Source of the DNA: Chthoniobacterales bacterium | GTDB lineage: Bacteria > Verrucomicrobiota > Verrucomicrobiia > Chthoniobacterales > UBA10450 | DNA: 64,000 nt | Assembly (NCBI GenBank): GCA_035941675.1 | Contig: DASZDT010000004.1 | Span: 1,837-65,836, forward strand | Direction of reading: 5' to 3' | Shown here: positions 15,218 to 34,873 of the stretch, piece by piece | Layout of the letters: each line of letters opens with the position of its first letter | Position numbering within the stretch: the first letter of the stretch is position 1 | Translations under genes and position numbers: made by a program | The notes under the pieces: generated by a model | What the model saw: the letters and a program-made list of their open reading frames with translations, nothing else | Told to the model about the DNA's origin: nothing | Databases searched by the model: none

Positions 15218-15230
15218 CGGGGCGCCATTC

Positions 15231-15304
15231 GTCACCCCATGTAGTAACCGCCGTTCACATTCAAAACGTGGCCGGTGATGAAGCTCGCCATGTATGTGCG
15301 AGGA
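15231..15304 (-). pseudogene. orphan 3'-terminal fragment of a FabG-like SDR gene (duplicate of 18569-18643)
   Basis: 15231-15291 matches 18569-18629 at 57/61 nt by hand alignment. It encodes ...MASFITGHVLNVNGGYYMG* versus ...MASYITGHVLNVNGGYYMG* of the intact gene. Similarity continues with a 1-nt indel (gcgaggaa) and is then lost. Confidence 0.75.
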
Positions 15305-15340
15305 AAATACCTCAAACAACGTGGATTGGGATAGTCACCG

Positions 15341-15865
15341 TCACCAGTATTCGATCCTCAAGTCGACTGGCGCACCGCGGGCCCTCAGTTCTTTCCCCGC
15401 TTGATCTATGAAACGCATTCCGGCATTTCGATCGCGAGTTACTAAGATCAATCCGTTCTCGGCTGCAATGCTGGCTATTAAAAGGTCACGCTCGTCAATT
15501 CCCAACTCCCGGCCACTGACACGGTCCATTAATTCCTCGGGCAACTTTTCGCGGTGCCCTCTGGTCTGTTTGGTTGCGTGCATTCGCCACAGCTGCGCGC
15601 GCAGATGTGAATAAGGTTCCACTGTATTTGGACCGATTCCTAATGGTTGGGGGAAGCTTTCAAAGCACTTCCGAATTCCACTGCGCTGAAATTCATCTGC
15701 CAGTTCGGATTTAGCCATTCCAAACTCAATTTCGGCGATCGCAATTACCGGCAGCCAAACATGGTCTAGCGCGCGAACGCGTTTTTCGATCTCATCGTGA
15801 TCCGCATGGCGACTGTTTGCCAACACCGAAATCACATTGGTGTCGAGTAGATAACCGTCGCTCAC
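15341..15865 (-). CDS. PIN-domain ribonuclease (VapC-like toxin), 174 aa
   Basis: LLDTNVIS (first Asp), AIAEIEFG (Glu), ERDLLIASIAAENGLILVTRDRN (third and fourth acidic residues). GTG start overlaps the stop of the upstream methyltransferase (GTGA at 15862-15865). Confidence 0.85.
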   Translation of the reverse strand: MSDGYLLDTNVISVLANSRHADHDEIEKRVRALDHVWLPVIAIAEIEFGMAKSELADEFQRSGIRKCFESFPQPLGIGPNTVEPYSHLRAQLWRMHATKQTRGHREKLPEELMDRVSGRELGIDERDLLIASIAAENGLILVTRDRNAGMRFIDQAGKELRARGAPVDLRIEYW

Positions 15866-18568: not shown

Positions 18569-19324
18569 TCACCCCATGTAATAACCACCGTTCACGTTCA
18601 AAACGTGGCCGGTGATGTAGCTCGCCATGGGCGAAGCGAGGAAGAGCGCGGCGTTCACGATTTCATGCACGTCGCCGAGGCGGCCGAGCGGGATCTGCTT
18701 TTTGAAGTTTTCCGTCACTTCGTCGGGCATCCCTTTGCTCATGCCGACGTCGATGAATCCGGGCGCGATCGCGTTCACGGTAATGTTTTGCCGGGCCAGC
18801 TCCCGCGCCGAGACTTTGGTCAGCGCGATGATGGCCGCTTTGCTCGACGAATAATTCGCCTGGCCGAACAATCCCATCTGGCCGCTGACCGACGACAGAT
18901 TGATGACCCGCCCGTCGTTGCGCAGGATCGTTGCCGCCGCCTTGGTGACGTTGAAGGTCCCGGTGACGTTGACGCGGAGGACGCTTTCGAATTCCTCGAC
19001 CGCCATTTTTTTCATCGTCCGGTCGCGGATGATTCCCGAATTGTTGACCAGGACGTCGAGCCCGCCGTGGCGCTCCTGGATCTGCTTCATCATGGCCTCG
19101 ACCTGCGCCGGGTTCGTCACGTCGCACTCAATTACGAGCGGCTCGCGTAACTCCGCCGCAACCTTGGCTGCATCCGTCTTGTTCGTTCCATCCGGATCGG
19201 CCACATAATTCACCACGCACTTCGCCCCGCGCGCTCCAAACGCCTTGATCATTTCCGCCCCGATCCCGCGCGAACTGCCGGTCACGAGAATGATCTTGCC
19301 GCCGAAATCCAAAGGATCACTCAT
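18569..19324 (-). CDS. SDR-family oxidoreductase, 3-oxoacyl-ACP reductase (FabG)-like
   Basis: TGSSRGIG cofactor motif, NNSGI, catalytic YSSSK, C-terminal GHVLNVNGGYYMG. Confidence 0.9.
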   Translation of the reverse strand: MSDPLDFGGKIILVTGSSRGIGAEMIKAFGARGAKCVVNYVADPDGTNKTDAAKVAAELREPLVIECDVTNPAQVEAMMKQIQERHGGLDVLVNNSGIIRDRTMKKMAVEEFESVLRVNVTGTFNVTKAAATILRNDGRVINLSSVSGQMGLFGQANYSSSKAAIIALTKVSARELARQNITVNAIAPGFIDVGMSKGMPDEVTENFKKQIPLGRLGDVHEIVNAALFLASPMASYITGHVLNVNGGYYMG

Positions 19325-19340
19325 GGCAACGAGATACCAT

Positions 19341-19796
19341 TCACGCGGCGGTCGCGCCAGAGAGCCGGCGGATAAGGAGTGAAGTCGGTAACCCGATTAC
19401 GAACATGTGAATCCCGACCTGGATCAGATCGCCGGTCAACGAATGCCGCGGCTTCGCGGCCGACAACGGCAGGACGATCAGGTTCATTACCCCGAAGACA
19501 ATCAACCCATAGACCAACCCCGAGATCACCGCCTGCCGTCGCAGGACGGCGAGCTGGCGACTCGCAGCGTAGAAAATCGCGACCAGACTGAACGCGATCA
19601 AGAAATGCAATCCGAGACCGAGCGCGGCCGTTGCGGTGCCGCCTTGAAACGCCTTCGGCCCGATGAGACCGCTGGCGACGAACTGGAGAAGCCGCGTCAC
19701 AGTCGCTCCGCGCGAAACCGCCTGGATACATGCCGCAGTAATGTCCATCGCGCCGACGATCACTCCTGTGATCGCGATAGTTCGAGCGGCGCGCAT
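19341..19796 (-). CDS. small integral membrane protein (about 4 TM), function unknown
   Basis: Hydrophobic helices (ITGVIVGAMDITAACI, ALGLGLHFLIAFSLVAIFY, ISGLVYGLIVFGVMNLIVL, IQVGIHMFVIGL). Confidence 0.6.
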   Translation of the reverse strand: MRAARTIAITGVIVGAMDITAACIQAVSRGATVTRLLQFVASGLIGPKAFQGGTATAALGLGLHFLIAFSLVAIFYAASRQLAVLRRQAVISGLVYGLIVFGVMNLIVLPLSAAKPRHSLTGDLIQVGIHMFVIGLPTSLLIRRLSGATAA

Positions 19797-19858
19797 CCGG
19801 CGACGTTAGGCTGGAAACGCTTTGCCTGACAAGGGATTGCCGTTAAGTTTTGCGCCTC

Positions 19859-21016
19859 ATGTCCGCACCGATTCGCGTTCTCACCGCCGTTCCGATTTGC
19901 GATGGGCACGACAGCGCGATCAACACGATCAACCTCGAGTTCATCCGGCACGGGATCGAAGTCGTTTATCTCGGGTTCCATCGTTACGTCAGCGATATCG
20001 TCCGCGCCGCGATCCAGGAGGACGTCGCCGCGGTCGGCATCTCCAGTTACAACGGGGGGCACATCGAGTTCTTTGCGGAAGTCGTGAAGCAATTGAAGAA
20101 GCGCGGCGCCGACGACATCAGGGTTTTCGGCGGCGGCGGGGGCACGATCACGCATGATGACCAGCGCATCATGCAGAAGCGCGGCGTGGATAAGATCTTC
20201 TTCGCCGGAACATCGCTGACCGACATGGCGGACTTCGTCCACGACCGGTACGGCAAACGGCCGAAGCGGCGGGCGACGAAAGATTCGGAGATGAATCTCG
20301 CGCGAAAGCTGACCGCGATCGAAGACAGCTACGCGGGGAAAAGTAGAAAGGCTAAAATAGAAAGTAGAAATTCGAAGACCGGTAAGACGCGCGTGATCGG
20401 ATTTACCGGGCCGGGTGGAGCGGGCAAGACAACGCTGATCGACGAGCTGGTGCTGCGGCTGCTGAAGCGCGATCCGAAATCGCGGATCGCGATTCTGTCG
20501 CACGATCCGAGTGTGGTGGGCGCAGGCGCGCTGCTCGGCGATCGCGCCACCATGATCAACTCGCAGGACGACCGGGTTTTCATGCGGAGCATGGCCACGC
20601 GCGGACAGGCCGGCGGATTGTCGCCCGCGACGGAAGATTGCCTGCGGCTCCTCGCGCAGGAAGGATTCGATTACGTCATTATCGAGACGGTCGGCACCGG
20701 CCAGGAAGCGATGCCGTTCCAAAACAAGCTGGTCGATCAAACCGTGCTGGTGATGAACCCGGACTACGGCGCGCGCCTCCAGTTGCAAAAGATCGTGATG
20801 CTCGACCTGGCCGACATTGTGGTGGTGAACAAGAGCGATCAGGAGCGGGCGCGAACCGCGATGAGCGAGATCGAGCGGCGGCTCGAGCTGAACAAACGGG
20901 ACCAGCAACTCGTCGCGACCGTTGCGAAACGGCACCGCGACGCCGGCGTCGATGCGTTGTGTGATTTGCTGACCAAGCCGGGCAGCCCGGCCTCGAAGAA
21001 AGGAAAGAGAAAATGA
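19859..21016 (+). CDS. B12-binding domain fused to MeaB/ArgK-type G-protein chaperone (N-terminal two-thirds of an IcmF-like mutase)
   Basis: VLTAVPICDGHDSAINT (DxH B12-binding motif), then P-loop GFTGPGGAGKTTLIDEL and VVVNKSDQ (NKxD). ATG 19859 preferred over TTG 19850. Confidence 0.85.
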   Translation: MSAPIRVLTAVPICDGHDSAINTINLEFIRHGIEVVYLGFHRYVSDIVRAAIQEDVAAVGISSYNGGHIEFFAEVVKQLKKRGADDIRVFGGGGGTITHDDQRIMQKRGVDKIFFAGTSLTDMADFVHDRYGKRPKRRATKDSEMNLARKLTAIEDSYAGKSRKAKIESRNSKTGKTRVIGFTGPGGAGKTTLIDELVLRLLKRDPKSRIAILSHDPSVVGAGALLGDRATMINSQDDRVFMRSMATRGQAGGLSPATEDCLRLLAQEGFDYVIIETVGTGQEAMPFQNKLVDQTVLVMNPDYGARLQLQKIVMLDLADIVVVNKSDQERARTAMSEIERRLELNKRDQQLVATVAKRHRDAGVDALCDLLTKPGSPASKKGKRK

Positions 21017-22866
21017 GCAAGCTAGGACGAGTGGTGGAAGCGGTCGAGAACTACAACGCGTTCGTCGAGGACGAAGTAAAGCGCGCGCGGACCGACAAAA
21101 AGTTTGGCGACCAGATGGTGAAGCGCTGGAACGAGATCAAGGCCGGCATTCCCGTCGGCACGGCGCCGACCGGTTTGAAATTGCCGCGGCTCGCTTTGCC
21201 GGAGATCGACGAAGCGGGCGACATCACCCGCTACTTGTTAGGTGACGGATTGCCAGGCGAATTCCCGTTCCTCAACGGCGCGTATCGCGAAATGTATCTG
21301 GAGCCGCTCCACAACCCCGCGATCGAGACCGGCACTTACGAGAAGAACGGGCACGGCGCGAAATCGAAGCTCAACGGAAGCAAGAACGGCGCGCGCAACG
21401 GCGCCGTCGCCAAGCCGCAGCAAGCCGAAGAGCCGACTCGTTTGTTCTCCGGCCTGATGCTGGCCGAAGACACCAACGAACGTTTCCATTTTCTCGGACG
21501 CCACCAGCGTTCGAAACGGCTCAGCACCGCGTTTGACGGTCCCACCCTTTACGGGATCGATTCCGACGCGCCCGGGATTCTCGGCAAAATCGGCGAGGGC
21601 GGGGTCGCGGTCGACACCGTCGAGGACATGGTCCGGCTTTACGATGGATTCGATCTTGGGTCGCCGGATTTCTCGGCGTCGATGACGATCAGCGGCCCGG
21701 CCCCGATCATCATGGCGATGTACATCGCGGCGGCGAAACGGCGGTTCGGTCCGGGCGTTGTCCCGAAACTTCGCGGCACCATCCAGGCCGACATTTTCAA
21801 GGAAGTCCAGGCGCAGAACGAGACGATCTTCCCGGTGGAAGCGTCGTTGCGGTTCCTGACGGACATGATGGAATTCACGACGCGCGAGATGCCGCGCTGG
21901 TACCCGGTTTCAATCAGCGGCTATCACATCGGCGAAGCGGGTTCGACGCCGGTCCAGCAGGCGGCTTACACGCTCTCGAACGGTTTCGCGTATGCGGAGA
22001 TGATGGCGGCGCGCGGCATTCCCGTGGATGAGTTCGGCCCCCGGCTCTCGTTCTTTCTCGATTGCGGACTCGATGTCGAATACATCGCGCTGACTCGCGT
22101 CTCGCGTCGCATCTGGGCGATCGGAATGCGGGACGCATTCGGCGCCGGCCACAAGGCGCAAATGTTCAAGGTGCACACCCAGACGAGCGGCCGTTCCCTC
22201 GTCGCGGCGGAATTCAAGAACAACCTCACCCGCACGGCCGCCGAGCTGATGCTTTCCTACATGAACGGGACCAACTCGTGCCACTCGAACAGCGCCGACG
22301 AGCCGTTCACCACGCCGAGCGAAGAATGGATCCGTCTCGCGGCGCATGGCCAGGCGATCCTGCTCGACGAGTCCGGCATCTTCAAACACACGATGAACAT
22401 GCTGAGCGGATCGCCCGGGATGAAGGCGGTCGAGCGGGCCGTGGAAGCCGCGATCCTGGAAGAATTCCGCGAGATCGAGCGCCTCGGCGGAGTGATGGGG
22501 TCGGTCGAGAATCGTTATCAACGCAGCCAGATCCAGGCGGCGGCGCATCGTTACGAACAGCAGATCTACAGCGGCGTCCGGCCCATCATTGCCCTGAACA
22601 AGTACCGCAACGACAGCGAGGAGATGCCGGAGTTCGAGCTCGCCCGGACCCCGCGCGCCCGGCAGCAGTTGCAGGTCGATCGCCTGAAGAAGTTCAAGCA
22701 AAAGAACGCGGCCAAGGCCGGGAAGGCGCTCGAGAAACTGGCCGCCGTGGTGGAGACCGATGAGAACTGCTTCCCGGCCCTGCTCGAAGCCGCCGAGGTC
22801 TGCTCGTTAGGCCAGATCTGCGAACGCCTGCAGGAAGTCGTGGGGCGGTTCCGGCCAATGGTGTAG
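21013..22866 (+). CDS. methylmalonyl-CoA mutase-family substrate-binding (TIM barrel) subunit, IcmF C-terminal-like
   Basis: RLSTAFDGPTLYGIDSD, GEGGVAVDTVEDMVRLYDGFDL, SASMTISGPAPIIMAMYIAAA, GTIQADIFKE. ATGA overlap with the preceding B12/MeaB gene. Confidence 0.9.
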   Translation: MSKLGRVVEAVENYNAFVEDEVKRARTDKKFGDQMVKRWNEIKAGIPVGTAPTGLKLPRLALPEIDEAGDITRYLLGDGLPGEFPFLNGAYREMYLEPLHNPAIETGTYEKNGHGAKSKLNGSKNGARNGAVAKPQQAEEPTRLFSGLMLAEDTNERFHFLGRHQRSKRLSTAFDGPTLYGIDSDAPGILGKIGEGGVAVDTVEDMVRLYDGFDLGSPDFSASMTISGPAPIIMAMYIAAAKRRFGPGVVPKLRGTIQADIFKEVQAQNETIFPVEASLRFLTDMMEFTTREMPRWYPVSISGYHIGEAGSTPVQQAAYTLSNGFAYAEMMAARGIPVDEFGPRLSFFLDCGLDVEYIALTRVSRRIWAIGMRDAFGAGHKAQMFKVHTQTSGRSLVAAEFKNNLTRTAAELMLSYMNGTNSCHSNSADEPFTTPSEEWIRLAAHGQAILLDESGIFKHTMNMLSGSPGMKAVERAVEAAILEEFREIERLGGVMGSVENRYQRSQIQAAAHRYEQQIYSGVRPIIALNKYRNDSEEMPEFELARTPRARQQLQVDRLKKFKQKNAAKAGKALEKLAAVVETDENCFPALLEAAEVCSLGQICERLQEVVGRFRPMV

Positions 22867-22872
22867 GCGCCG

Positions 22873-23301
22873 CTACTTTTTTGCGACCCGCGTCAGCCGG
22901 ATGTTCTTGCCGTAGAAGGCCAGGCAGCGCGGCTCGACGACGTGGGTGGCGTTGATCGACACGATAATGTCGCGGCCGGCACGCGTGATCGTGCCCGTTC
23001 CCGAATTCTCGAAACTGTCCTGGAACCGGAACGTAAGCGTGTTTCCGGAAACCATCGCGGGTCCTTCCGCTTCCGGCGCGGCGCCGTGACCATCGGCCCA
23101 GGCTGCATCAAAGGCGACCTGGGTTCTGGCTCCCGATTCTTCGATCGTCAGTTGAAACACCGCGCGGCCGCCGAGAAATTTCTTGTCCGTGTACTGACCG
23201 GCCCAGCCTGATGAGTCAGTCGCGCGAGCGGAGAGACTGAAGAGACCGAGAAGCACAACGGTCGTGGCAAGCTGCCGGAAGAAAGAGAGCCGCGTATTCA
23301 T
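22873..23301 (-). CDS. small secreted hypothetical protein (142 aa)
   Basis: ATG at 23301 gives the signal-like MNTRLSFFRQLATTVVLLGLFSLSARA. The upstream part of the track ORF is implausible. Confidence 0.5.
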   Translation of the reverse strand: MNTRLSFFRQLATTVVLLGLFSLSARATDSSGWAGQYTDKKFLGGRAVFQLTIEESGARTQVAFDAAWADGHGAAPEAEGPAMVSGNTLTFRFQDSFENSGTGTITRAGRDIIVSINATHVVEPRCLAFYGKNIRLTRVAKK

Positions 23302-23370
23302 TCGCGGAGTATCGAACCGGTTTGCGGTTTGCGCCATCGAATCAGATTTGTCCGCATCGCAGCGGTCGTT

Positions 23371-24669
23371 ATGCTGGCCATCGTCATGGCTAACGGCGGA
23401 CTGGATGCGGGGACGACGGCGCGCGGGAAAATCGCGTGGCGGCTGCTGCCGTTCCTTTTCCTGCTCTACGTCGCGAACTATCTCGATCGCACCAACATCG
23501 CCTACGCCACCCTGGGAATGAAAGGCGATCTCCGGCTGAACGATTCCGTCTTCGGCACCGCGAGCGGCATCTTTTTCATCGGCTATTTCGCGTTGCAAAT
23601 CCCGGGCGCGGTTTTGGTGGAACGCTGGAGCGCCCGCCGTTTGCTCGCGATTACCCTGATCGCGTGGGGCGCGCTCACGACGTTGACCGGGTTTGTCCGG
23701 ACGCCCACGGAACTTTACGGCGCCCGTTTTTTGTTAGGCGCGGCCGAGGCCGGATTTTTCCCGGGCGTGATCGTGTATCTGTCGCACTGGTTCGTCTACG
23801 AGGACCGCGCCAAAGCCGTCGCGCGATTCATGTCCGCCATCCCGATCGCTTACATTCTCGGCGGACCACTGGCGGGCGCGATCCTCGGAATGAACTGGCT
23901 GGGCACAGCGGGATGGCGATGGTTATTCCTGCTGGAAGGCGTGCCGGCTGTCGTGCTCGGCGTCGTGACTTTCTTCGTGCTGCCGGATCGGCCTAACGAG
24001 GCCAGCTGGCTCACGCCTGGCGAGCGCGAGTGGATGAGCTCACGCCTCGGCGAAGAGCGCCGGGCCAAGGCCAACACCGGGCAGATGTCGATCTGGCAGG
24101 CGCTGCGACATCCGGCCGTGATCATCCTCACGATCGGATTGTTCTTCTGCTACAGCGGCGGCTACATTTTCTGGTTCTGGATGCCGACGCTGCTCAAGCG
24201 CATGACCGGATGGAGCGACGCCGAGGTCGGCTGGATGGGGGCGATACCTTTCATGGGCGGTCTCATCGGCATGCTCCTCGTCGGCTGGAGCTCCGACCGC
24301 ACCCGGGAACGGCGGTGGCACTTCGCGCTGCCCCAGCTCACCGCGGCGGCCGGGCTCGCCGCCTGGTTCGTCCTGCCGCATTCGAACGCCGCGCTGCTGG
24401 CCGTGTTCACGCTCATCGGCTTCGGCACCGTCGCATATCTTCCGGCGTTCTGGGCTTTGCCCTCTGCATTTCTCTCCAGCGCCGCGGCCGCGGCCGCCGT
24501 TGGCTTCATTAATTGCATGGCCAGCATCGGCGGCTTCGCCGGCCCCAAAATCTTCGGCGACCTCAGCCAGCGAACCGGTTCGTTCAACACTGGTTTTGCC
24601 GTGATGATCGCGTGCTGGGTGATCGCGTCGGTCCTGGTTCTCGTTTGTCCACGAGAACCAGCCAGATAG
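23371..24669 (+). CDS. MFS transporter (anion:cation symporter-like)
   Basis: WRLLPFLFLLYVANYLDRTNIAYA, 12-TM-like hydrophobicity. Start uncertain (TTG 23329, ATG 23371 or ATG 23386). Confidence 0.85.
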   Translation: MLAIVMANGGLDAGTTARGKIAWRLLPFLFLLYVANYLDRTNIAYATLGMKGDLRLNDSVFGTASGIFFIGYFALQIPGAVLVERWSARRLLAITLIAWGALTTLTGFVRTPTELYGARFLLGAAEAGFFPGVIVYLSHWFVYEDRAKAVARFMSAIPIAYILGGPLAGAILGMNWLGTAGWRWLFLLEGVPAVVLGVVTFFVLPDRPNEASWLTPGEREWMSSRLGEERRAKANTGQMSIWQALRHPAVIILTIGLFFCYSGGYIFWFWMPTLLKRMTGWSDAEVGWMGAIPFMGGLIGMLLVGWSSDRTRERRWHFALPQLTAAAGLAAWFVLPHSNAALLAVFTLIGFGTVAYLPAFWALPSAFLSSAAAAAAVGFINCMASIGGFAGPKIFGDLSQRTGSFNTGFAVMIACWVIASVLVLVCPREPAR

Positions 24670-24671
24670 CG

Positions 24672-26027
24672 TCAGCTCTTCAGGGCAACCTCAAACGGCG
24701 CGCCGGTCTTGGCGCGGACGTCATCGACCGTGGCGCCGGGTTGCAGCTCTATCAGGACAAGCCCGCCGCCTGGTTTCACCTCGAAGACAGCGAGATCGGT
24801 GATGATGAGATTGACGACGCCGAGACCGGTGATCGGCAGGGTGCATTCCTTCAAAATCTTCGGGCTGCCGTCCTTCGACGTGTGCTCCATCACGGCGACG
24901 ACTCGCTTCACGCCCGCCACCAGGTCCATCGCGCCGCCCGGCCCTTTCACCATCTTGCCCGGGATCATCCAATTCGCGATGTCGCCCTTGTCGGTCACTT
25001 CAAACGCGCCGAGAATCGCGAGGTCGATATGCCCGCCGCGAATTTGGGCGAAGGAATCCGCGCTCGAGAAAAAGGCCGAGCCGGGCATGGTCGTGATCGT
25101 CTGTTTGCCGGCGTTGATCAGGTCGGGGTCCTCTTTGCCGGGTTGCGGAAACGGGCCGATGCCTAACAACCCGTTCTCCGATTGCAGCGTCACATTCATT
25201 CCTTCGGGAATGTAATTCGCGACCAGCGTCGGAATGCCGATACCCAGATTGACGTAATACCCTTCGCGTAATTCCTGCGCGGCGCGTTTCGCGAGCAGAT
25301 CGCGGATCGAGGAACCGGCCTTCGCGACCGCGGCGCCCTGGACCGTGCGGAACTCAATCCGCTTCTCGTAGTTCGCTCCCTGAATGATCCGATCGACGTA
25401 AATCCCCGGCGTGTGAACCTGATCCGGATCGAGCTCGCCCACTTCAACCAGCTCTTCGACTTCCGCGACGCAAACCTTCCCGCAGGTCGCGATCATCGGA
25501 TTGAAGTTCCGCGACGTCATTCGGTAGATGAGGTTCCCGGATTTATCGCCCTTCCACGCTTTCACGAGCGAGACTTCGGCTTTGATGCCCGGCTCGAGGA
25601 CGTATTCCTTGCCGTCGAAAGTTTTCGTCTCCTTGCCCTCGGTCAGTTTGGTGGCGAACCCCGTCCGCGTGTAGAACCCGGGAATGCCGGCGCCTCCCGC
25701 GCGCAATCGCTCGGCGAGCGTCCCCTGCGGGATCAGTTCCAGCTCGAGCTCGCCGCTCAACACCTGGCGCTCGAATTCCTTGTTCTCGCCGACATACGAC
25801 GCCATAACCTTCTTCACCTGTCGGGTCGTAAGAAGAACGCCCATGCCGAACCCATCGACTCCCGCGTTGTTGCCGACGATCGTGAGGCCCTTCACGCCAC
25901 TCTCGTGCAACGCCGCGATCAAATTCTCCGGAATCCCGCAAAGCCCGAAGCCGCCCGCGGCAATCGTCATGTTGTCGTGGAGCAGACCAGCCAGCGCTGC
26001 CTTGGCGTCAGGGTAAACTTTGCTCAT
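24672..26027 (-). CDS. fused 3-oxoacid CoA-transferase (A and B subunits in one 451-aa chain)
   Basis: A-part [40 protein letters not shown]-part [31 protein letters not shown] (catalytic Glu motif SENG), GGAMDLV. Confidence 0.9.
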
Positions 26028-26077
26028 GTGGACCGAAATCTAAGCACGGATTCCAGGGATCGGCACGGATGAATTCC
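25992..26077. repeat. direct repeat copy A: 5' end (12 codons) plus 50-nt leader of the fused CoA-transferase gene
   Basis: Aligns without indels to 27756-27841 (offset 1764 nt). 41/44 identical in the leader part (26034-26077), roughly 72/86 overall by hand. Confidence 0.8.
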
Positions 26078-26229
26078 TAGGCGATCCCGGGACCCACTCG
26101 TCGCGTGGGGCCCTTGGACACACCCTCGCTGTCGTCAACAGGCAACTCGATATCCCGGGCCTATCCTCGCCGCGCTCGGTTCTGGTTCGGTTAGCGCGTC
26201 AGCGTGGACTCGCTCCAAGAAAAAAACGC

Positions 26230-26258
26230 TTGAAAGACCTTAACGATATGAGCATATA
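26230..26258 (+). promoter_or_regulatory. possible sigma70-like promoter for the DUF4062-like/ACT gene (TTGAAA-17 nt-CATATA)
   Basis: Read by eye about 75 nt upstream of ATG 26331. Weak -10. No experimental or statistical support. Confidence 0.2.
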
Positions 26259-26330
26259 GGGACAGCATTCCCCGGAATAAAAGCTCTGGCATTTTAGCCA
26301 AGCACAACCCTCTCTGAATCCCCTCTCGCC

Positions 26331-27704
26331 ATGCCTACCCCTGATAAAGTAGAGCCACGTACCGTTCTCATTAGCAGCCGCATTGACGAGCTCGGTTCCT
26401 CGCGCCGAGCGGCTTTTCGTGCGGTTCACGATGAGGGTTGGATCCCGCTCCTCTATGAAACTGAACCGCTTGCATGGTTAGCCGCCCAGCGACACGCACG
26501 GCGGAAAGGGCAACAGCCTGTTCAACACGTAATGCAGGATAATGAGATCGAACGGTTGACGATGAACAGCCTTCTCAATACTGCCGACCATTTCATTGGC
26601 ATCTACGGGACTTCCCTGGGTGAGCCAAGTCCCCAGCTGAGTGGCCTCCGTCCAATTGAATACGAATTCGTACGCTTTCTGGTGGGCCATGTGTTGGGGA
26701 ACGAGAACGCGAACGAAGAGCGGCTGGCCGATATGTTTCGTTCGAACCCTTCTCCTGCAGGTTTTCGGGCTGCACGGGATAAATTACGACGGGCCGTCAG
26801 AAGCATTTATGACGAGTCAAGCGACTATCACAAAGTGTTCCGTAAGCGGATGGCGTTATACCTTAAGAAGCCGCCGAGCGATGTTTCTCCCCCCTCTTCC
26901 ATGTACGCGATCATCAACAAGTTGCGCCGGGCTGTTCCGGGCGAGCAGATCTGCTTCTTTACGTCTGAATTCGAGCAGGTTGCAAGTGGGGCCGTCGTGT
27001 ATTGCAGACCAAGTTCTCACCTTTATGTGAAGATCCGTTTGCAGATTCAGCAATGGCGTCTTAACGGCGACCTTCCAAACACATCGAGGCCGCAGGGCGG
27101 CGAGTTTTCGTTCGAGGTTGTGTCGCGCGAGCACGTGGGCGCGGTTCTCCACGTCGTGAGATCCATTTTTTACGAGGGCTATAACGTGCGAAAGCTGAGC
27201 TTGGGCATGAACGAACAAGCGGAGCGGGTCATGCACGTCACGGTGAAGCCCTATTTGCACGCTCGAGGTGATCTCCGTGAGCAGCTAAATACACATTACG
27301 GTTGTGAGGTGCGCGACTGCCCAAATCCGCACGCCGTAAAACCCCTTTCGGGCGATGTTGCGATACGGCAACTAGAGATGATCGTCGCCGATCGTCCCGG
27401 GATGTTGGCGCGCGCCTTAGCCGCTCTCGCGCTTCTGGATATGCAAGTGCTCGAAATACGAATGGAAGATGCCGAGCATAGTGGAGGACCGGGCCGTGGG
27501 CCACGTAACCACGTTTGGGTGACCTTCGAGGAATCGCGAGGCTCGGAGGTGAAGAAGGACAAGAGTATGCTTCACGATTTTCAGTTGCCTGACGATCGGC
27601 AATTCAAACTTGACTTCATCGCGGCCGACTTGGCCTCACAACCGGGGTTTTACTCCGTGATTCTTACTAATATGGCGAGCAACGCCTCTCGTGCTCAGAG
27701 TTAA
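26331..27704 (+). CDS. DUF4062-like (TIR/nucleoside-deoxyribosyltransferase-like) N-terminal domain fused to two ACT-like domains, 457 aa
   Basis: N-terminus VLISSRIDELGSSRRAAFRAVHDEGWIPLLYE ... ADHFIGIYGTSLGE ... LRPIEYEF follows my recollection of the DUF4062 consensus (vFiSS..DL..eR......l...G..pv..E ... cDvyvgilG.rYG ... S.TelEy). C-terminus FSFEVVSREHVGAVLHVVRSIFYEGYNVRKLSL and LEMIVADRPGMLARALAALALLDMQVLEIRME are ACT-like. Confidence 0.75.
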   Translation: MPTPDKVEPRTVLISSRIDELGSSRRAAFRAVHDEGWIPLLYETEPLAWLAAQRHARRKGQQPVQHVMQDNEIERLTMNSLLNTADHFIGIYGTSLGEPSPQLSGLRPIEYEFVRFLVGHVLGNENANEERLADMFRSNPSPAGFRAARDKLRRAVRSIYDESSDYHKVFRKRMALYLKKPPSDVSPPSSMYAIINKLRRAVPGEQICFFTSEFEQVASGAVVYCRPSSHLYVKIRLQIQQWRLNGDLPNTSRPQGGEFSFEVVSREHVGAVLHVVRSIFYEGYNVRKLSLGMNEQAERVMHVTVKPYLHARGDLREQLNTHYGCEVRDCPNPHAVKPLSGDVAIRQLEMIVADRPGMLARALAALALLDMQVLEIRMEDAEHSGGPGRGPRNHVWVTFEESRGSEVKKDKSMLHDFQLPDDRQFKLDFIAADLASQPGFYSVILTNMASNASRAQS

Positions 27705-27734
27705 GTACCAATTGATCCGTTCGAGACCTTCATG

Positions 27735-27791
27735 TCAGCAATGGCGCACTGCCTCAAGCGCAGTCTTGGCGTCGGAATAAACCTTGTTCAT
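27735..27791 (-). pseudogene. 18-codon relic of a CoA-transferase 5' end (MNKVYSDAKTALEAVRHC*)
   Basis: Compare the intact gene [16 protein letters not shown]. Part of direct repeat copy B. Confidence 0.65.
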
Positions 27792-27841
27792 GCGAAGCGA
27801 AATCTAACCACGGATTCCGCGGATCGGCACGGATGAATTCC
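27756..27841. repeat. direct repeat copy B (see 25992-26077)
   Basis: cgaaatctaaCcacggattccGCggatcggcacggatgaattcc versus cgaaatctaaGcacggattccAGggatcggcacggatgaattcc, plus the diverged ATG-proximal codons. Confidence 0.8.
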
Positions 27842-27923
27842 GATCCCAAACGTGAGAGCGCGACGTCAGTTAATGCCTGAAGAGGCGATTGTCTCCCATT
27901 GCCCAAAATGATAATCTCTCTTC

Positions 27924-28145
27924 GTGAGCAGAGTATCTGTCGCTGATGTGCTCGAGCTGAGCGTAAGTGAACGCATCCAGCTTGTGGAGGAAATATGGGA
28001 TAGCATCGCGGCCGTTCCGCAGGCGACTCCGTTAACGCCGGCTCAACGGGAAGAGCTTGGGCGACGACTTGAGGATTATCGGCTGCATCCGGACGAAGGC
28101 TCGCCCTGGGACGAAGTGAGGAGCCGCCTTCTCGCCAGTAAGTAA
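27924..28145 (+). CDS. putative addiction-module antitoxin component (partner type of RelE/ParE toxins)
   Basis: LSVSERIQLVEEIWDSIA...LTPAQREELGRRLEDY...SPWDEV matches the 'putative addiction module component' family pattern (L...eR..L...lwdSl.......l.........el.rR...). Confidence 0.65.
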   Translation: MSRVSVADVLELSVSERIQLVEEIWDSIAAVPQATPLTPAQREELGRRLEDYRLHPDEGSPWDEVRSRLLASK

Positions 28146-28297
28146 TGACCGGCCAGGTCATCTTCAGATCTCGCTGGTGTTCCGGTTCGGCATCGCGAAA
28201 AAAAACTGCGTTTTCACAATTCAAACGTGTCCCTCGGATCGGGGCGATGAGACACAGCCTGGGCGGCAAGGCAGCTACGGAAAACGCCCCGCGTTAG
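28145..28297 (+). pseudogene. possible degraded RelE/ParE-type toxin remnant
   Basis: ATG overlaps the antitoxin stop (TAATG). It starts MTGQVIFRS like ParE/RelE N-termini and then loses similarity. An alternative frame reads FRFGIAKKNCVFTIQTCPSDRG, reminiscent of a toxin C-terminus. Suggests an internal deletion or frameshift. Confidence 0.25.
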
Positions 28298-30729
28298 GGA
28301 AGCGCGGCCACAACCAACGGATCGCCATCCAGGCGACCGTCCAAATCGCGATCGATTCCCATCCGCACGCCGGAGCCAAGCGGAACTCCGGTGATGCTAA
28401 GAATGTCTCCCGCGGCAATCTTTGCTTGCAGCTCCGCCTGCGAGAATGGGCCCACGCCCGTCTTGTCCGACAAATAACTGTTGTTTACTGGATCGTAGAC
28501 GAGCCCGCGCTGCGCACCGTCGACAGTTCCTTTCGCGATCAGGTCGATGTTCGAGGCCGCAGCCTGGCTTTGCAGTACCGTCCAATCGTTCGTCACCGCC
28601 GGGTCAGCGACGTTCGTGGCGGTCACGGTGCGGGTGAATCCCACGGCGGGCGCGGTGCCGGTGTCGAGGCAGAGCAGGAACGCGCTGATGTTCGTCTTTC
28701 GGACTGTGTCGTTCGTAAAGTTGGTGAAGACGGGTCGACTAATGAACGCGAACAGGCCCGGATCGGTGCCATCGTGAGTGAGGCCAAAGCCGTCGAGCGA
28801 CACTGCGCCCGACGCGGTGTTGAAGAATTTCTTCTGATATAAGGTGCGCAGTTGCGGGACCTTCATGGTCTGCGGTTGCTGCATGACGGGACCTGAGGTG
28901 AACGTCTTGTCTGTCCCGGGGCCCGGATCCACCTTGTGGCACATGTTGCACGAGATGGTCGTCGTGTACGGCTCCGTCCGGAACGTGTTCATTCCCGCGG
29001 CGGGGTTGCCGCCGGCATGCGTGGGCGGCAGGGTGCGATCGAGCTGTTGATTTGGATTCGGCGGCAGGTTCATGGTCTCGACGAATTGCGCGAAGGCGTC
29101 CATATCCGCCGGGGTCAGCTGCGAGCCGCCGAGCAGGGAGGCAAAGGCCGGGCTGAAGGAGGTGAACCCGGCGCGGTCACCGCGCCAATGCAGCGGCGCC
29201 AGATTCTTCAATCCTTTCAGGGTCTGCGTTGTCATGGGCCCTTTCATGGGATGCATCGGGAACGTCGTCGTCGCGCCGGTAAGCGAGGCCGGTCCGACGA
29301 CGTTCTGCATCTGGCCGTTTGGATCGCCGAGATCCCACGCGAGCCGATCGTTGGTGCCGTCCAGGTGACACGAAGCACAGGAGACAGTGCCGTTGCCGGA
29401 GAGGCGCGCGTCATACAGGAACCCACGCCCATTCTTAATCACCACCGGAGTCGGATCGAATCCGCCGACCGGGACTTCCGATACGACCGCGTTGGCCGCT
29501 GTGTCCACGACGCTGATCGTGTTCGAGATACGGTTGAGAGAATAAAGTTTTCCACTCCCTGCGTTTAAGGCGAGCCCGCGCGGGCCGCGTTTGTTCCGCG
29601 GATTGACGGCCGCGCCGGCCAAATCAATGCGGGAAGCGACGGTGCCGTCCGCGTTCATCTTCGCGATGCGATCGCTGCCGAAGGCCGCCACGTACGCGAA
29701 GGTCCCTTGGGGCGCGAAGACGATCGCCGTGGGTTGCCCCAGGGCTGTCGCCTGCGCCGATGGATTCGGGAGCACGGAATAATTGACGCCCGGGTTCAGA
29801 TCGGAGATGCGAAGGGCGCCGCCGGCGTTGGAAATGCGGGTAACGCGATTATCGACAAAGTGGGCGCGCAGGTTGGGCTCGAAATGCACGAGGTTCCGGG
29901 CGTCGGTATTGGTGACGAAGATGTCGCCGGTCGTGGGTTGCACGGCCAGGCCGAGATTGCTCGTGCCGACGCGTGGGAAATAGCGCGTAACTGCCAGCGT
30001 GCTCGTGTCGATTTCCGCCACGTCGTTATCCGGCATTGTGTATTTGATGACCTTCCGCCACGTCGTGTCGGTCGCGTCGACAATCAGGCCGACCTTCGGT
30101 GGCTGGGGCAGGCTCCGGTTCGTCGGCTTCGGTTGTGAAGGGGCTTTGTCCGCGGGGATCAACGTCGTGCGGTTTCCCGATTCAGCGAACGCGACATAAA
30201 TTCTCGTCCCGTTGGGGCTCACGGCAAGGGCGCGCGGTTGCTGGCCGTTCAGCGGAATCGTCTTCACCAAGGCGTGCGTCGAGGTGCTGTAGACGCGCAC
30301 TTCGTTGTTGCCTGCGACGCTCACGAAGGCGAACGCCCCCGCAAACACGACATCAGCCGGCTCATCTTTCACGTTGATCGTATCGGTCACGATTCCACGT
30401 GAGAGCGAGACGATGCTCACGCTGTCGGAGAGTTCGTTCACCACCCAGACTTCGTCGTTCGTCAGCGGGTTCACCGAAACGGGCTCGATTCCGACCGGGA
30501 TTTCGTAGGTCAAAACCGGGGGGGTCTGGGTCGCGTCGAAGACTGAGAGCCGCGCATCGGCGCTATTGACCGCGCACAACCAGCGGCCGTCGGGCGAGAG
30601 CCGAAGGGGATTTGTCTGCCGCGCCTCGAAGTTAACGAAGGCAGACGACGGAACCTGCGCCTGGCTCTGCTCTAAAAAAACAGCGAGGGCGCCGGCGAAA
30701 AGGAGGGAGTGGAGCAAGGGGTGGCGCAT
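28294..30729 (-). CDS. secreted YVTN-type beta-propeller fused to a di-haem cytochrome c peroxidase-like domain
   Basis: Signal peptide. Repeated propeller strands (LSPDGRWLCAVNSADARLSVFD, LAVSPNGTRIYVAF). Two haem c motifs: CASCH (SCASCHLDGTNDRLAWDLGD) and CNMCH. Confidence 0.8.
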   Translation of the reverse strand: MRHPLLHSLLFAGALAVFLEQSQAQVPSSAFVNFEARQTNPLRLSPDGRWLCAVNSADARLSVFDATQTPPVLTYEIPVGIEPVSVNPLTNDEVWVVNELSDSVSIVSLSRGIVTDTINVKDEPADVVFAGAFAFVSVAGNNEVRVYSTSTHALVKTIPLNGQQPRALAVSPNGTRIYVAFAESGNRTTLIPADKAPSQPKPTNRSLPQPPKVGLIVDATDTTWRKVIKYTMPDNDVAEIDTSTLAVTRYFPRVGTSNLGLAVQPTTGDIFVTNTDARNLVHFEPNLRAHFVDNRVTRISNAGGALRISDLNPGVNYSVLPNPSAQATALGQPTAIVFAPQGTFAYVAAFGSDRIAKMNADGTVASRIDLAGAAVNPRNKRGPRGLALNAGSGKLYSLNRISNTISVVDTAANAVVSEVPVGGFDPTPVVIKNGRGFLYDARLSGNGTVSCASCHLDGTNDRLAWDLGDPNGQMQNVVGPASLTGATTTFPMHPMKGPMTTQTLKGLKNLAPLHWRGDRAGFTSFSPAFASLLGGSQLTPADMDAFAQFVETMNLPPNPNQQLDRTLPPTHAGGNPAAGMNTFRTEPYTTTISCNMCHKVDPGPGTDKTFTSGPVMQQPQTMKVPQLRTLYQKKFFNTASGAVSLDGFGLTHDGTDPGLFAFISRPVFTNFTNDTVRKTNISAFLLCLDTGTAPAVGFTRTVTATNVADPAVTNDWTVLQSQAAASNIDLIAKGTVDGAQRGLVYDPVNNSYLSDKTGVGPFSQAELQAKIAAGDILSITGVPLGSGVRMGIDRDLDGRLDGDPLVVAALP

Positions 30730-30816
30730 AAAGGCGGCGATTCAACTCCAATCGCGGACAAATAGGAAGTGCTAACTTCGGGGCGCATGCTGTCCCCCTA
30801 ATTGCGGCTGCCTACT

Positions 30817-31302
30817 CTAGCGATCAGTATAACGCTGGGTCAGCGTCAGAATAATATGCGATTTGCCCGCAGCCCCGGGTTCCTGATCGGGTAAGCTTTT
30901 AGACAAGCTGAATCCGCATTTTTGCAGAACGCGCAGCGACGCGGTGTTGTGCGGGGCTACACCGGCGCAGAGTGGCCGCCGTTGTTCGAGGCGGAGAAAC
31001 AAAGAGAGCGCTTCGGTGGCAATGCCGCGTCCCCAAAGCGCGCGGTCGATCCAATAGCCGATCTCGCGCTCCCCGTCGCGCAGGAAACTGGCGATGCTTC
31101 CCGCTACCTGGCCGTCGGCTACGATGGTTTTCGTGAAACAGTTCTCGTCGGCCAGGATCTTGGCCCAGTGCACATCGAACTCAGCCCTGTCCCGCGAACG
31201 GAAGGCAACCATCGCGACCGCGACGGGATCTCGCTGGTGTTCGAAGAAGTGGGGCAGGTCGCCCGGTTCGACATCGCGGAGAACGACGTTTGGTGATTTC
31301 AC
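30817..31302 (-). CDS. GNAT-family N-acetyltransferase (161 aa, GTG start)
   Basis: IGYWIDRALWGRGIATEAL (acetyl-CoA-binding R/Q-x-x-G-x-G/A motif), ASLRVLQKCGF. GTG at 31302 overlaps the POT stop (GTGA). The 570-aa track ORF is an artefactual extension. Confidence 0.75.
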   Translation of the reverse strand: MKSPNVVLRDVEPGDLPHFFEHQRDPVAVAMVAFRSRDRAEFDVHWAKILADENCFTKTIVADGQVAGSIASFLRDGEREIGYWIDRALWGRGIATEALSLFLRLEQRRPLCAGVAPHNTASLRVLQKCGFSLSKSLPDQEPGAAGKSHIILTLTQRYTDR

Positions 31303-33642: not shown

Positions 33643-33707
33643 CGAGCCGGCAACGTTACTGACGACGGCGCGCGCTCACCAGTGCTAACTCAAGTCTCAA
33701 GACCGGG

Positions 33708-34796
33708 ATGAGGATTACGCTGGAAGATTTGCGGCGGTTTGCGGTGGGGCGGTCGCTCTTCGCGCCGACGACGTTGCCGCGGGCGCTGGACCGGATGGGA
33801 TTTGTGCAGGCCGATCCGATTCGAGCGCCGGCCAGGGCGCAGGATCTGATTCTGCGGCATCGAGTGAAGGGCTATCGGGCCGGCGACTTGGAACGGCGGT
33901 ATGAGGCGCTCGGGGTCGAGGAGGATTTCTTTATCAATTATGGGTTCGTGACCCGCGCGGTGCAGAGGTTGATGCATCCGCGCGCGGAAGAGCGTGTGCC
34001 GGCGGCGGAGCGGAGGAAGGAAAAGCTGCTGCTGGATTTTGTGACGGAGCGCGGCGCGGTGCATCCGCGTGAGGTGGAAGAACATTTTGCGCATGGAACG
34101 GTGCGGAATTACTGGGGCGGCTCGTCCCATGCGACGACCCAAATGCTCGACGCGCTCCATTACCGCGGAATGCTCCGCGTGGCGCGGCGTGAGAAGGGCA
34201 TTCGGCTTTACCGCCGTCACCGGCATGAACCGGCGCAGCTGGACGAAGCAGGCCGGCGGGCGCGGACCGATGCGCTGGTCGATGTGGTGGTGAACATTTA
34301 CGCGCCGCTCCCGGCGGTGAGTCTTTCGTATTATGTGCGCCGGTGGCGTTTCGCCGCGCCGCAATGGGAGAAGGAGATCACCGGGGCGTTGCAGCGCGCT
34401 CGGGAACGGCTGGCGCAGGCCAGGGTGGACGGCCTCGATTGGTACTGGCCTAACGAGGCGAATCCGGGAAAGGCAAGAGAACCAGAAGGCCTCTGGTTCC
34501 TGGCGCCGTTCGACCCGGTGGTGCACGACCGAAAACGTTTCGAGCTGTTGTGGGGCTGGAATTATCGCTTCGAAGCCTATACGCCGGCGCCGAAACGGAA
34601 GCTCGGGTACTACGCGCTGCCGTTGCTCTGGCGCGATCGCGTGATCGGTTGGGCGAATCTCGCGGTGAAGAACGGGAAGCTGGACAGCGAGTTTGGATAC
34701 GCGGCCGGGCGGCCGCCGCGCGATCGTGATTTCAAGCGCGAGCTCGACGCGGAGCTGGAGCGGATGCGGGCGTTTCTCGGAGCGAATGGTCTGTAG
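33708..34796 (+). CDS. YcaQ/AlkZ-like winged-helix protein (DUF1006, crosslink-repair DNA glycosylase family)
   Basis: LDRMGFVQADPIRAPARAQDLILRHRV contains the Q-hydrophobic-D motif of the YcaQ branch. Also WGWNYRFEAYTPAPKRKLGYYALPLLWRDRVIGWANL. Confidence 0.8.
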   Translation: MRITLEDLRRFAVGRSLFAPTTLPRALDRMGFVQADPIRAPARAQDLILRHRVKGYRAGDLERRYEALGVEEDFFINYGFVTRAVQRLMHPRAEERVPAAERRKEKLLLDFVTERGAVHPREVEEHFAHGTVRNYWGGSSHATTQMLDALHYRGMLRVARREKGIRLYRRHRHEPAQLDEAGRRARTDALVDVVVNIYAPLPAVSLSYYVRRWRFAAPQWEKEITGALQRARERLAQARVDGLDWYWPNEANPGKAREPEGLWFLAPFDPVVHDRKRFELLWGWNYRFEAYTPAPKRKLGYYALPLLWRDRVIGWANLAVKNGKLDSEFGYAAGRPPRDRDFKRELDAELERMRAFLGANGL

Positions 34797-34873
34797 CGAC
34801 AACGCTCTGTCGCCGTAAACCGTTGCTTTTGACATGATCCATCTGATTGACAGCGGTTGTGTGCCGAAAAAAT

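Follow-up and report, generated by a model that had tools for sequence, protein, structure and literature searches.

A divergent DUF4062 domain joined to a tandem ACT pair in an accessory gene of a Chthoniobacterales bacterium: a candidate ligand-gated NAD+ hydrolase

In 2026, DUF4062 was recognised as a widespread immune effector that destroys nicotinamide adenine dinucleotide (NAD+) and that is common to bacteria and human TEP1, as reported in three preprints. Here, we analyse a gene that encodes such a domain in divergent form, followed by two ACT domains; it lies at positions 26331 to 27704 in a stretch of 64,000 nucleotides from a Chthoniobacterales bacterium (assembly GCA_035941675.1, contig DASZDT010000004.1, positions 1,837 to 65,836; the whole stretch is called the window below). 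Osinski et al. describe DUF4062 as a TIR-like NADase with ADP-ribose (ADPR) and nicotinamide as products: In the single-gene defence system Swarozyc, the protein KpSwz (catalytic residue E97) is activated by the phage portal and stays inactive in a particular oligomer, in which BB loops block the active site, and human TEP1 is active as well, with E1008 (10.64898/2026.05.01.722283). Le Mouellic et al. rename the domain NIR and report the depletion of NAD+ by PsAvs2 (E108), by Vulcan (NIR and HEAT, E98) and by Vesta (VstA and an alkaline phosphatase, E103) (10.64898/2026.09.04.749371). Ibarra-Chavez et al. describe Evangelion, in which Eva01, encoded on S. aureus pMW2, has the essential residues F11, E87 and W162 and loses defence entirely upon the E87A exchange (10.64898/2026.06.25.731849). 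NAD+ loss was seen in all three studies, and ADPR and nicotinamide were identified in two of them; the single-gene systems that act by abortive infection have a conserved core and a diversified sensor region, and they require the glutamate (10.64898/2026.05.01.722283, 10.64898/2026.09.04.749371, 10.64898/2026.06.25.731849). By these accounts, all bacterial DUF4062 proteins tested so far are anti-phage effectors, NIR genes are found near known defence genes in about 20% of the cases as compared to 3.9% expected, and the sensors reported to date detect phage proteins, apart from one case with a suspected ligand. An earlier note on this DNA had referred to DUF4062 as a proposed TIR- or nucleoside 2-deoxyribosyltransferase (NDT)-like nucleotide-processing effector, and the three preprints bear this out in reporting a NAD+ hydrolase in anti-phage defence.

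We suggest that the gene is an accessory gene for a single-polypeptide, ligand-gated NAD+ hydrolase that acts in defence or in stress arrest, and we give this reading a probability of about 0.5. Three elements are secure, i. e. a divergent DUF4062/NIR domain with a Glu-Tyr(-Glu) motif at the catalytic position, a linker of about 120 residues, and an ACT pair that has the glycines of the ligand loop. Hydrolysis of NAD+ is the most likely activity by homology, and we further infer ligand gating, an oligomeric switch and a role in defence or arrest. The peptides quoted in the earlier note, VLISSRIDELGSSRRAAF..GWIPLLYE, ADHFIGIYGTSLGE, LRPIEYEF and LEMIVADRPGMLARALAALALLDMQVLEI, are all present in the open reading frame (ORF) of 457 amino acids, which is organised as follows:

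26331..27704, + strand: complete coding sequence, 457 aa, ATG to stop, from the ORF listing (in order, a DUF4062/NIR-like domain, a linker with helical and alpha/beta parts, and ACT1 followed by ACT2)
26358..26705, + strand: DUF4062/NIR-like core, residues 10-125 (Pfam matches in relatives; family profile against Eva01)
26460..26582, + strand: variable, low-confidence helical insertion, residues 44-84, between core strands 2 and 3 (AlphaFold2, alignment)
26658..26666, + strand: E110-Y111-E112, predicted active site (E110 and Y111 aligned to Eva01 E87 and Y88)
26706..27065, + strand: linker with helical part 126-173, strand 174-179 and, after these, a small alpha/beta unit that ends in the long helix 227-245 (AlphaFold2)
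27093..27320, + strand: ACT1, residues ~255-330 (AlphaFold2 fold; profile match to the small subunit of acetohydroxyacid synthase, AHAS)
27363..27671, + strand: ACT2, residues ~345-447; hallmark loop A353-D-R-P-G-M358, insertion 403-422 disordered (Pfam, AlphaFold2)

Like Evangelion (Eva01) and Swarozyc (KpSwz), the gene product consists of one polypeptide with an N-terminal DUF4062 core and a C-terminal auxiliary region, a region which in those two systems is needed for activation. As in these systems, a conserved core is combined with a diversified auxiliary part, the gene is mobile or accessory, and the Glu-Tyr motif aligns with that of Eva01. In contrast, the auxiliary regions of Evangelion and Swarozyc are unannotated helical or short segments, and they sense phage proteins or replication processes, with KpSwz binding the portal, whereas the family presented here carries tandem ACT domains, adds a long insertion in the BB-loop position and about 120 residues between core and sensor, and has L13 at the position of Eva01 F11. 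Vulcan, Vesta and the NIR-Avs2 proteins are similar in that NIR forms an N-terminal effector module that is coupled to a sensor. Among them Vesta is conceptually closest: According to its authors' text, VstA, with its putative ligand-binding C-terminus, may sense a small molecule. Unlike in Vulcan, Pfam gives no HEAT match in the query or in 68 relatives, the C-terminus being the ACT pair, and unlike in the Avs/STAND NIR proteins there is neither a STAND NTPase nor C-terminal repeats by Pfam in the same set. Unlike in Vesta, no gene for an alkaline phosphatase lies next to the DUF4062-ACT gene, be it in the window or at the homologue loci; the sole gene of the phosphodiesterase/sulfatase family among the loci is about 5 kb away, at locus L001 alone.

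In ThsA (SLOG-SIR2, Thoeris) and TIR-SAVED (CBASS), a ligand-binding domain is fused to an NAD+-depleting domain, and the ligand drives an oligomeric or conformational switch. The protein studied here resembles these two and MisA (Metis) in this combination of ligand sensing and, as judged by homology, NAD+ depletion. Their sensors bind nucleotide second messengers, or modified nucleotides that come from a partner enzyme or from phage action; the present protein, unlike them, has an ACT pair as its sensor, no partner gene, and NIR instead of SIR2 or a canonical TIR domain as its effector. Tandem ACT domains with a glycine-containing loop between strand 1 and helix 1 are shared with IlvA threonine deaminase, the AHAS small subunit, aspartate kinase, phosphoglycerate dehydrogenase (PGDH) and SerB2, and ACT-regulated metabolic enzymes are both the best structural and the best sequence matches for residues 250-457. 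In the IlvA-type enzymes, however, the ACT pair exerts feedback control on a biosynthetic enzyme, whereas here it is joined to a predicted NAD+-cleaving domain in an accessory gene that has no pathway linkage. The text of the three preprints and of one supplement makes no mention of an ACT sensor fused to DUF4062, with figures listing auxiliary domains outside this scope, and in full-text literature searches we found no paper that joins ACT with NADase, TIR, anti-phage or abortive infection; by their titles and abstracts, the ACT mentions in the literature appear to concern RelA/SpoT-type enzymes. The DUF4062 effector family and single-gene DUF4062 defence are already known, and the ACT-fused form is apparently new. 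The earlier note had not known the gene as a described system: Single-gene DUF4062 defence as such is described (Swarozyc, Evangelion, Vulcan), while no description of an ACT-fused form was found in the sources named.

Our work supports the idea that DUF4062 + ACT + ACT is a coherent, rare and environmental protein family rather than a one-off fusion, since by sequence comparison the Pfam matches recur across the relatives. Seventeen close homologues (37-100% identity) were found in a collection of 5.8 billion proteins; all of them come from metagenomes and none carries an informative name, and the full-length ones (440-480 aa) are collinear with the query and have the same architecture. DUF4062 was matched in 13 of the 17 (best E=2.8e-4), and so was ACT. 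When 1.84 billion cluster representatives (50% identity clusters) were scanned exhaustively with HMMER, 72 proteins were obtained at E<=1e-3, most of them 440-610 aa long and many matching chiefly via the N-terminal 130 residues; the ten distant members that were checked are singleton clusters from Logan, JGI, ENA or NCBI, again without informative names. When 68 of the 72 wider relatives were scanned one by one against Pfam, DUF4062 was matched in 55 (best 4.2e-11) and ACT in 36 (best 2.3e-9), and further relatives matched ACT_4, ACT_AHAS_ss and ACT_6. No other Pfam family was matched at E<=0.01 among these 68, thus indicating that an NTPase, repeats or a second enzyme are absent, in agreement with the earlier proposal that the NTPase usual for this domain is missing. 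The relatives' Pfam matches, the profile match to Eva01 and the structural models all uphold the proposed order of one DUF4062 and two ACT domains. JGI metagenome contigs gave one additional locus (L089), the single-protein searches of NCBIfam and of PDB sequences gave nothing useful, and a pattern scan of the GTDB species representatives did not find the family.

The alignment of the 12 full-length close homologues has 79 invariant columns. In the N-terminal part these include V12, I14-S15-S16-R17, E20, R25-D34, P39-E43, F88, G90 and Y92-G97, and further L106-R107-P108, E110, E112 and F116; E20 (66), R25 (67), P39 (68/68), F88 (62), G97 (67) and F116 (66) are near-universal even among the 68 diverse relatives. 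The identity to the query within the close family differs strongly between the segments: It amounts to 82-100% for residues 10-43 and 56-73% for residues 85-125, to 24-54% for the insertion 44-84, to 27-53% for ACT1 and to 34-67% for the first part of ACT2. As far as can be judged from these alignments, a conserved effector combined with a diversified sensor is the pattern that has been reported for Evangelion and Swarozyc.

The assignment of the N-terminal domain is based on several lines of evidence. The core consists of a strand (11-15, VLISS), a helix, a second strand (38-40), the insertion, a third strand (87-92, HFIGIY) and a helix that starts from the EYE motif. The query itself matches Pfam DUF4062 (PF13271) over residues 12-102 with E=0.0044, corresponding to profile positions 2-70 of 82, and six distant relatives exceed the gathering score of this family (e. 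g. P0028 with 35.2 bits and P0035 with 30.7 bits). The DUF4062-positive distant relatives are tied to the N-terminus of the query by phmmer, as in the case of P0022 (E=3.6e-23, query residues 9-136). Moreover, a hidden Markov model (HMM) of the first 125 residues of 67 wider-family sequences matches the validated DUF4062 protein Eva01 over its residues 4-92 with 35.9 bits, as compared to 4.8 bits for the best of 500 shuffled Eva01 sequences. Eva01 is WP_000072390.1 on pMW2 (NC_005011), with F11, E87, Y88, W162 and F212 at the published positions. In the HMM alignment, Eva01 F11, E87, Y88 and N89 correspond to L13, E110, Y111 and E112 of the query, respectively. E110 and E112 are invariant in the 12 full-length close homologues, and among the wider relatives E110 is present in 51, Y111 in 65 and E112 in 66 of 67. 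The earlier expectation of a conserved glutamate at the catalytic position thus holds: E110 is the residue that pairs with Eva01 E87, yet E112 is the better conserved of the two candidates.

The insertion between core strands 2 and 3 has a pLDDT below 50 for residues 44-70 in the AlphaFold2 model and is absent or short in P0035, P0028 and P0026. It occupies the position of the regulatory BB loop of KpSwz, and by analogy it may have a regulatory role as well. A separate AlphaFold2 model of residues 1-250 shows an alpha/beta domain (pLDDT 81) with the strands 11-15, 38-40, 87-92 and 174-179. In Foldseek searches of the PDB, this model found generic flavodoxin-like proteins, such as WrbA (probability 0.98, TM score ~0.4), none of them below E=1e-3, and no DUF4062 structure was matched when the PDB was searched with profiles based on the N-terminal alignment and on P0028. 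The long insertions probably impair the Foldseek search. With matches that are generic and not significant, the fold class is compatible with TIR and NDT and not specific to them, so that membership in DUF4062 rests on the sequence.

The linker (residues 126-245) is without a match in Pfam or the PDB. At the start of its long helix 227-245, the close family has the motif R226-P-S228-S229-x-L231-Y232 (RPSSHLY in the query, window 27006-27026), and R226, S228, S229, L231, Y232 and R236 are among the invariant columns in the 12 close homologues; in the wider family only L231 and an aromatic residue at position 232 are conserved. The RPSSxLY motif, itself included in the searches without a match, might be a contact site for phosphate or a ligand, or an interface.

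AlphaFold2 and Foldseek confirm the tandem ACT pair at the level of models. A full-length AlphaFold2 model built on an alignment of 17 sequences (pLDDT 78, pTM 0.80) has two beta-alpha-beta-beta-alpha-beta units at residues 259-329 and 346-447. The elements of ACT1 are the strands 259-264, 284-293, 299-307 and 326-329 and the helices 269-281 and 315-321; those of ACT2 are the strands 346-353, 371-380, 392-401 and 440-447 and the helices 358-367 and 423-436. Among PDB structures, Foldseek with the full model found mostly tandem-ACT regulators, with IlvA 9d2s (target-normalised TM score 0.63, probability 1.00) and 9d2r (~0.6), and in addition aspartate kinase, 2nyi, PGDH, SerB2, the AHAS small subunit and the GcvR-like 1u8s; the probability is 1.00 also for 2nyi, SerB2, the AHAS small subunit and 1u8s. 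Among PDB entries, a profile of the C-terminal part matched ACT proteins alone, with the AHAS small subunit in first place (6e-4) besides PurU, 2nyi and Rel. ACT1 is the most divergent structured part of the protein; residues 262-298 match Pfam ACT_AHAS_ss with E=0.11, and G270 in the loop between strand 1 and helix 1 is found in 61 and N285 in 50 of 68 relatives. For ACT2, the query matches Pfam ACT (PF01842) over residues 347-371 with E=0.0072, four close homologues have a precomputed PF01842 match, and the ACT region of homoserine dehydrogenase was matched as well. V352, A353, R355-P356-G357-M358, P438-G439, Y441 and V443 are among the invariant ACT2 columns of the 12 close homologues, and in the wider relatives P356 (63/63) and G357 (62/63 non-gap) form a (D/N)-x-P-G consensus and G439 occurs in 61. 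A word-indexed search for the ACT pair joined to other types of effectors returned the same family only. The nearest ACT relatives bind branched-chain amino acids, serine, lysine/threonine or glycine. By analogy, the ligand of the ACT pair is probably a small metabolite, with amino acids and compounds related to them as the most likely candidates. The allosteric control by an amino acid or another metabolite that the earlier note had put forward may likewise follow by analogy with ACT domains of other proteins.

Several observations weigh against a ligand-gated NAD+ hydrolase in defence or arrest, those given here as well as those on the genomic context presented further below. First, the query is below the gathering cut-offs of both Pfam families, with 17.6 vs 24.7 bits for DUF4062 and 16.5 vs 27 bits for ACT; the domains named in the earlier note are thus significant in the relatives and sub-threshold in the query itself. 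Second, hhalign with the 13 close sequences alone aligns Eva01 weakly (E=0.058), in the same register as the HMM alignment; since this comparison is weak, we rely on the wider-family HMM and its shuffle control. Third, E110 is lost in 16 of 67 wider relatives, and the essential aromatic residue F11 of Eva01 is replaced by L13 in the query and the close family, at a position where 50 of the 60 wider relatives with a residue have Phe. Finally, a match specific to a TIR or NDT fold was not obtained: With the N-terminal model, Foldseek found neither of the two in the top 50 of the PDB and nothing significant in BFVD, where nucleoside 2-deoxyribosyltransferases make up 8 of the top 50.

These points bear on two other explanations. 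A catalytically dead scaffold or adaptor, with a DUF4062-like domain for protein-protein contacts and an ACT pair for oligomerisation only, would account for the sub-threshold Pfam scores, for the lost aromatic residue and for the lack of a TIR/NDT-specific structural match. We consider this very improbable, because E110, Y111 and E112 are (nearly) invariant in the close family and highly conserved beyond it, and because the core is the most strongly constrained part of the protein. It is also unlikely, though less so, that the enzyme uses a substrate other than NAD+, i. e. that it is a nucleoside or nucleotide N-glycosidase or transferase, as are the related deoxyribosyltransferases and CMP hydrolases, or the maker of a signalling nucleotide, with the ACT pair gating how a nucleotide pool is depleted or modified. 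Nucleoside 2-deoxyribosyltransferases are the only recurrent named class among the weak viral fold matches (probability up to 0.97), DUF4062 was, as reported, first annotated as a cytidine monophosphate hydrolase and is placed by Pfam near the N-ribosyltransferase clan, and the family is divergent, with L13 for the usual Phe and its own RPSSxLY motif. However, the deoxyribosyltransferase matches are not significant, and distant bacterial and human DUF4062 members are reported to cause NAD+ loss in three studies, two of which name ADPR and nicotinamide as the products.

The gene is accessory and horizontally acquired in a soil Verrucomicrobiota genome. Horizontal insertion, as put forward in the earlier note, is borne out by four observations: the absence of the gene from the closest relative, the variable insertion site, a flanking repeat and a lower G+C content. 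The G+C content of the gene region is 0.54-0.55 as compared to about 0.61 on both flanks. The flanking CoA-transferase shows 90-93% identity to its counterparts in metagenome-assembled genomes of Chthoniobacterales/Verrucomicrobiota, and the host is assigned to this lineage on that basis. The closest relative (locus L009, about 84% nucleotide identity) is collinear with window positions 18569-26075 and again from 30839 onwards, and window positions 26076-30838 are missing from it. The intergenic site between the CoA-transferase gene and prpDBC (methylcitrate) is a site of variable cargo in Chthoniobacterales: It holds nothing in L010-L012, a POT transporter in L009, a DUF4062-ACT gene and one ORF in L005, and in the window the DUF4062-ACT gene, an orphan PF09720 antitoxin ORF, an 811-aa protein, a GNAT protein and a POT transporter. 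A direct repeat of 100 nt (80% identity, spacing 1764 bp) brackets the gene:

25978..26077: repeat copy 1, which comprises the authentic 5' end of the CoA-transferase gene (minus strand, with the start codon at 26027-26025) together with about 50 nt of its leader
26078..26330, + strand: upstream region of 253 nt between copy 1 and the start codon, inside the repeat-bounded unit, presumed to hold the gene's own promoter
27742..27841: repeat copy 2, which begins 38 nt past the stop codon, repeats the start of a CoA-transferase gene as a pseudo-5' end and marks where the 1.76-kb unit ends on the right

On its minus strand, copy 2 reads as a truncated pseudo-N-terminus of 17 codons, MNKVYSDAKTALEAVRHC*. 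Within the window, a 28-mer of the repeat is confined to these two positions, with 0 occurrences expected. L005 shares 95% identity with copy 1, and L009 shares 93% with the leader half of copy 2. The 1.76-kb unit may thus have been acquired by recombination anchored in the CoA-transferase region, and the repeat looks like the scar of this event. A scan of the upstream region for the sigma-70 consensus, which is uninformative for Verrucomicrobiota, gave no promoter on the + strand. The CoA-transferases of the window and of L005 share 91% identity, as compared to 59% for the DUF4062-ACT proteins at the same site. Just past the homologue, L005 9006-9312 matches (77%) window positions 34501-34816, the 5' part of an unannotated ORF of 381 aa (33690-34835, minus strand); this match 7 kb downstream hints at a rearrangement or deletion between the lineages.

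ACT pairs usually act by altering the packing of subunits, and TIR-like and NIR NADases need particular oligomeric arrangements for their activity. Since ACT pairs alter packing and NIR activity depends on the oligomer, as in the case of the KpSwz BB loops, the likely and most economical mechanism is that the binding or release of a ligand at the ACT pair would re-pack the protein and that this would free or assemble the NIR active site, perhaps by shifting the BB-loop insertion. The active NIR domain would then deplete NAD+, and the cell would be arrested when phages infect it or when its metabolism is otherwise severely disturbed. The accessory status, the fast divergence of the sensor and the record of the bacterial DUF4062 proteins tested so far favour a role in conflict. 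In a narrower and more tentative version of this idea, the gene would be a one-gene immune or dormancy switch, the ACT pair reading an amino-acid-type metabolite that is altered by phage takeover or starvation and thereby triggering the assembly of the NIR NADase and the collapse of NAD+.

The genomic context was studied at seven distinct homologue loci with flanking DNA (L001/L002 and L003-L008), a sample that is too small for statistics. The neighbourhoods are mutually unrelated, and neither a conserved operon partner at these seven loci nor a linkage to amino-acid biosynthesis operons in the window or at the homologue loci was found, as would be expected for the stand-alone gene that the earlier note had proposed. 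P0012 (L001/L002) adjoins a TIR_2 protein, with HSP70/Cpn10 upstream; an RHS toxin-like gene is found close to P0011, and a KAP NTPase and Ku are found close to P0008. The surroundings of P0015 consist of small ORFs and an HTH_3 gene, those of P0009 of housekeeping genes of lipid and nucleotide metabolism. PADLOC recognised only the TIR protein (SAVED_TIR/ThsB-like; L001/L002) and the KAP NTPase (PifA/QatA-like; L006). The TIR_2 protein has 356 aa (L001 8761-9831, L002 4685-5755), shows weak PADLOC SAVED_TIR/ThsB matches and is encoded 170 nt upstream of P0012 on the same strand; it is preceded in L001/L002 by genes for an HSP70-like protein, for Cpn10 and for an unannotated protein of 549 aa. 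Together with P0012, it could form a composite conflict locus.

The contextual points mentioned above as speaking against a defence role are the following: Defence-like neighbours are present at only two of the seven loci, the immediate neighbours of the gene in the window are metabolic genes and the orphan antitoxin, the query protein has no match in PADLOC, and the family has none in viral contigs, known plasmids or phages. The PADLOC result carries little weight, since the library dates from 2023, before the DUF4062 systems were described. The suggestion of defence in the earlier note thus draws weak support from two loci and none from PADLOC or from the neighbours in the window.

The same context is relevant for a physiological alternative: an amino-acid-responsive enzyme consuming NAD(P)+, not related to phages, that would cause dormancy or retune redox and nucleotide pools when the pool of one amino acid collapses or overflows. 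ACT domains classically report the amino acid status, and the nearest matches here are IlvA, the AHAS small subunit, aspartate kinase, PGDH and SerB; moreover, the gene sits within a propionate/methylcitrate-CoA cluster in both the window and L005, PADLOC gives no match, and most homologue loci are without defence neighbours, with no apparent enrichment in defence islands at these few loci. On the other hand, the close relatives L009-L012 lack the gene, the neighbourhoods are not conserved, the protein diverges far faster than the product of the neighbouring gene, its distribution is rare and patchy, and the bacterial DUF4062 proteins tested so far are all reported to be anti-phage. We regard a purely physiological regulator as less likely, and we prefer the ligand-gated NAD+ hydrolase in defence or stress arrest.

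If the narrower version of this idea is true, in which the ACT pair reads an amino-acid-type metabolite, the protein would be, as far as we found, the first NAD+-depleting effector that is gated by a primary metabolite via ACT domains, in contrast to gating by a phage protein or by a dedicated second messenger. The wiring of NIR to ACT would make the state of primary metabolism the trigger of an effector, and ACT-regulated enzymes would then range from biosynthesis to effectors of cell suicide or arrest. Being one soluble protein of 457 aa with an obvious catalytic mutant and a limited set of ligands to screen, it would be a tractable system, and it could reveal how NAD+ depletion is linked to the sensing of a metabolite and whether infection is detected through metabolic perturbation. 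Should the gene instead be a physiological dormancy switch, NIR enzymes would gain roles outside of immunity, which bears on the unexplained function of TEP1 in vaults.

The gene is followed on the same strand, 220 nt downstream, by the orphan PF09720 "Unstab_antitox" ORF (73 aa, 68 bits, 27924-28145). Its usual toxin position is taken by an ORF of only 50 aa (28145-28297), and the pair may thus be a decayed toxin-antitoxin module. That the DUF4062-ACT protein is itself the toxin of this antitoxin is hardly credible in spite of the close, co-oriented arrangement: PF09720 proteins normally pair with a small toxin encoded directly after them, the called genes of the seven distinct homologue loci have no PF09720 match on record, and the antitoxin ORF lies outside the repeat-bounded unit. 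For the last two reasons, this pairing was rejected.

Further genes of the window are of separate interest. An 811-aa, secreted-looking protein with a lactonase-type beta-propeller and a di-haem CCP_MauG motif is encoded at 28294-30729 (minus strand), within the segment missing from L009. A patch with a G+C content of 0.52-0.53 at 14414-18414 (minus strand), about 8 kb from the gene, encodes an N6-adenine methylase/MmeI-like protein of 850 aa, a PIN-domain protein of 174 aa and an unannotated ORF of 301 aa, and is possibly a restriction-modification or other defence island. At 34874-38290 (minus strand), a region of slightly lower G+C content, a bacterial ROCO protein of 1138 aa is encoded (leucine-rich repeats, Roc GTPase, COR-A/COR-B). 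Finally, the ORF at 53306-55693 (minus strand) encodes a protein of 795 aa in which a tetratricopeptide repeat is followed by a full-length animal haem peroxidase domain (E=1e-106).

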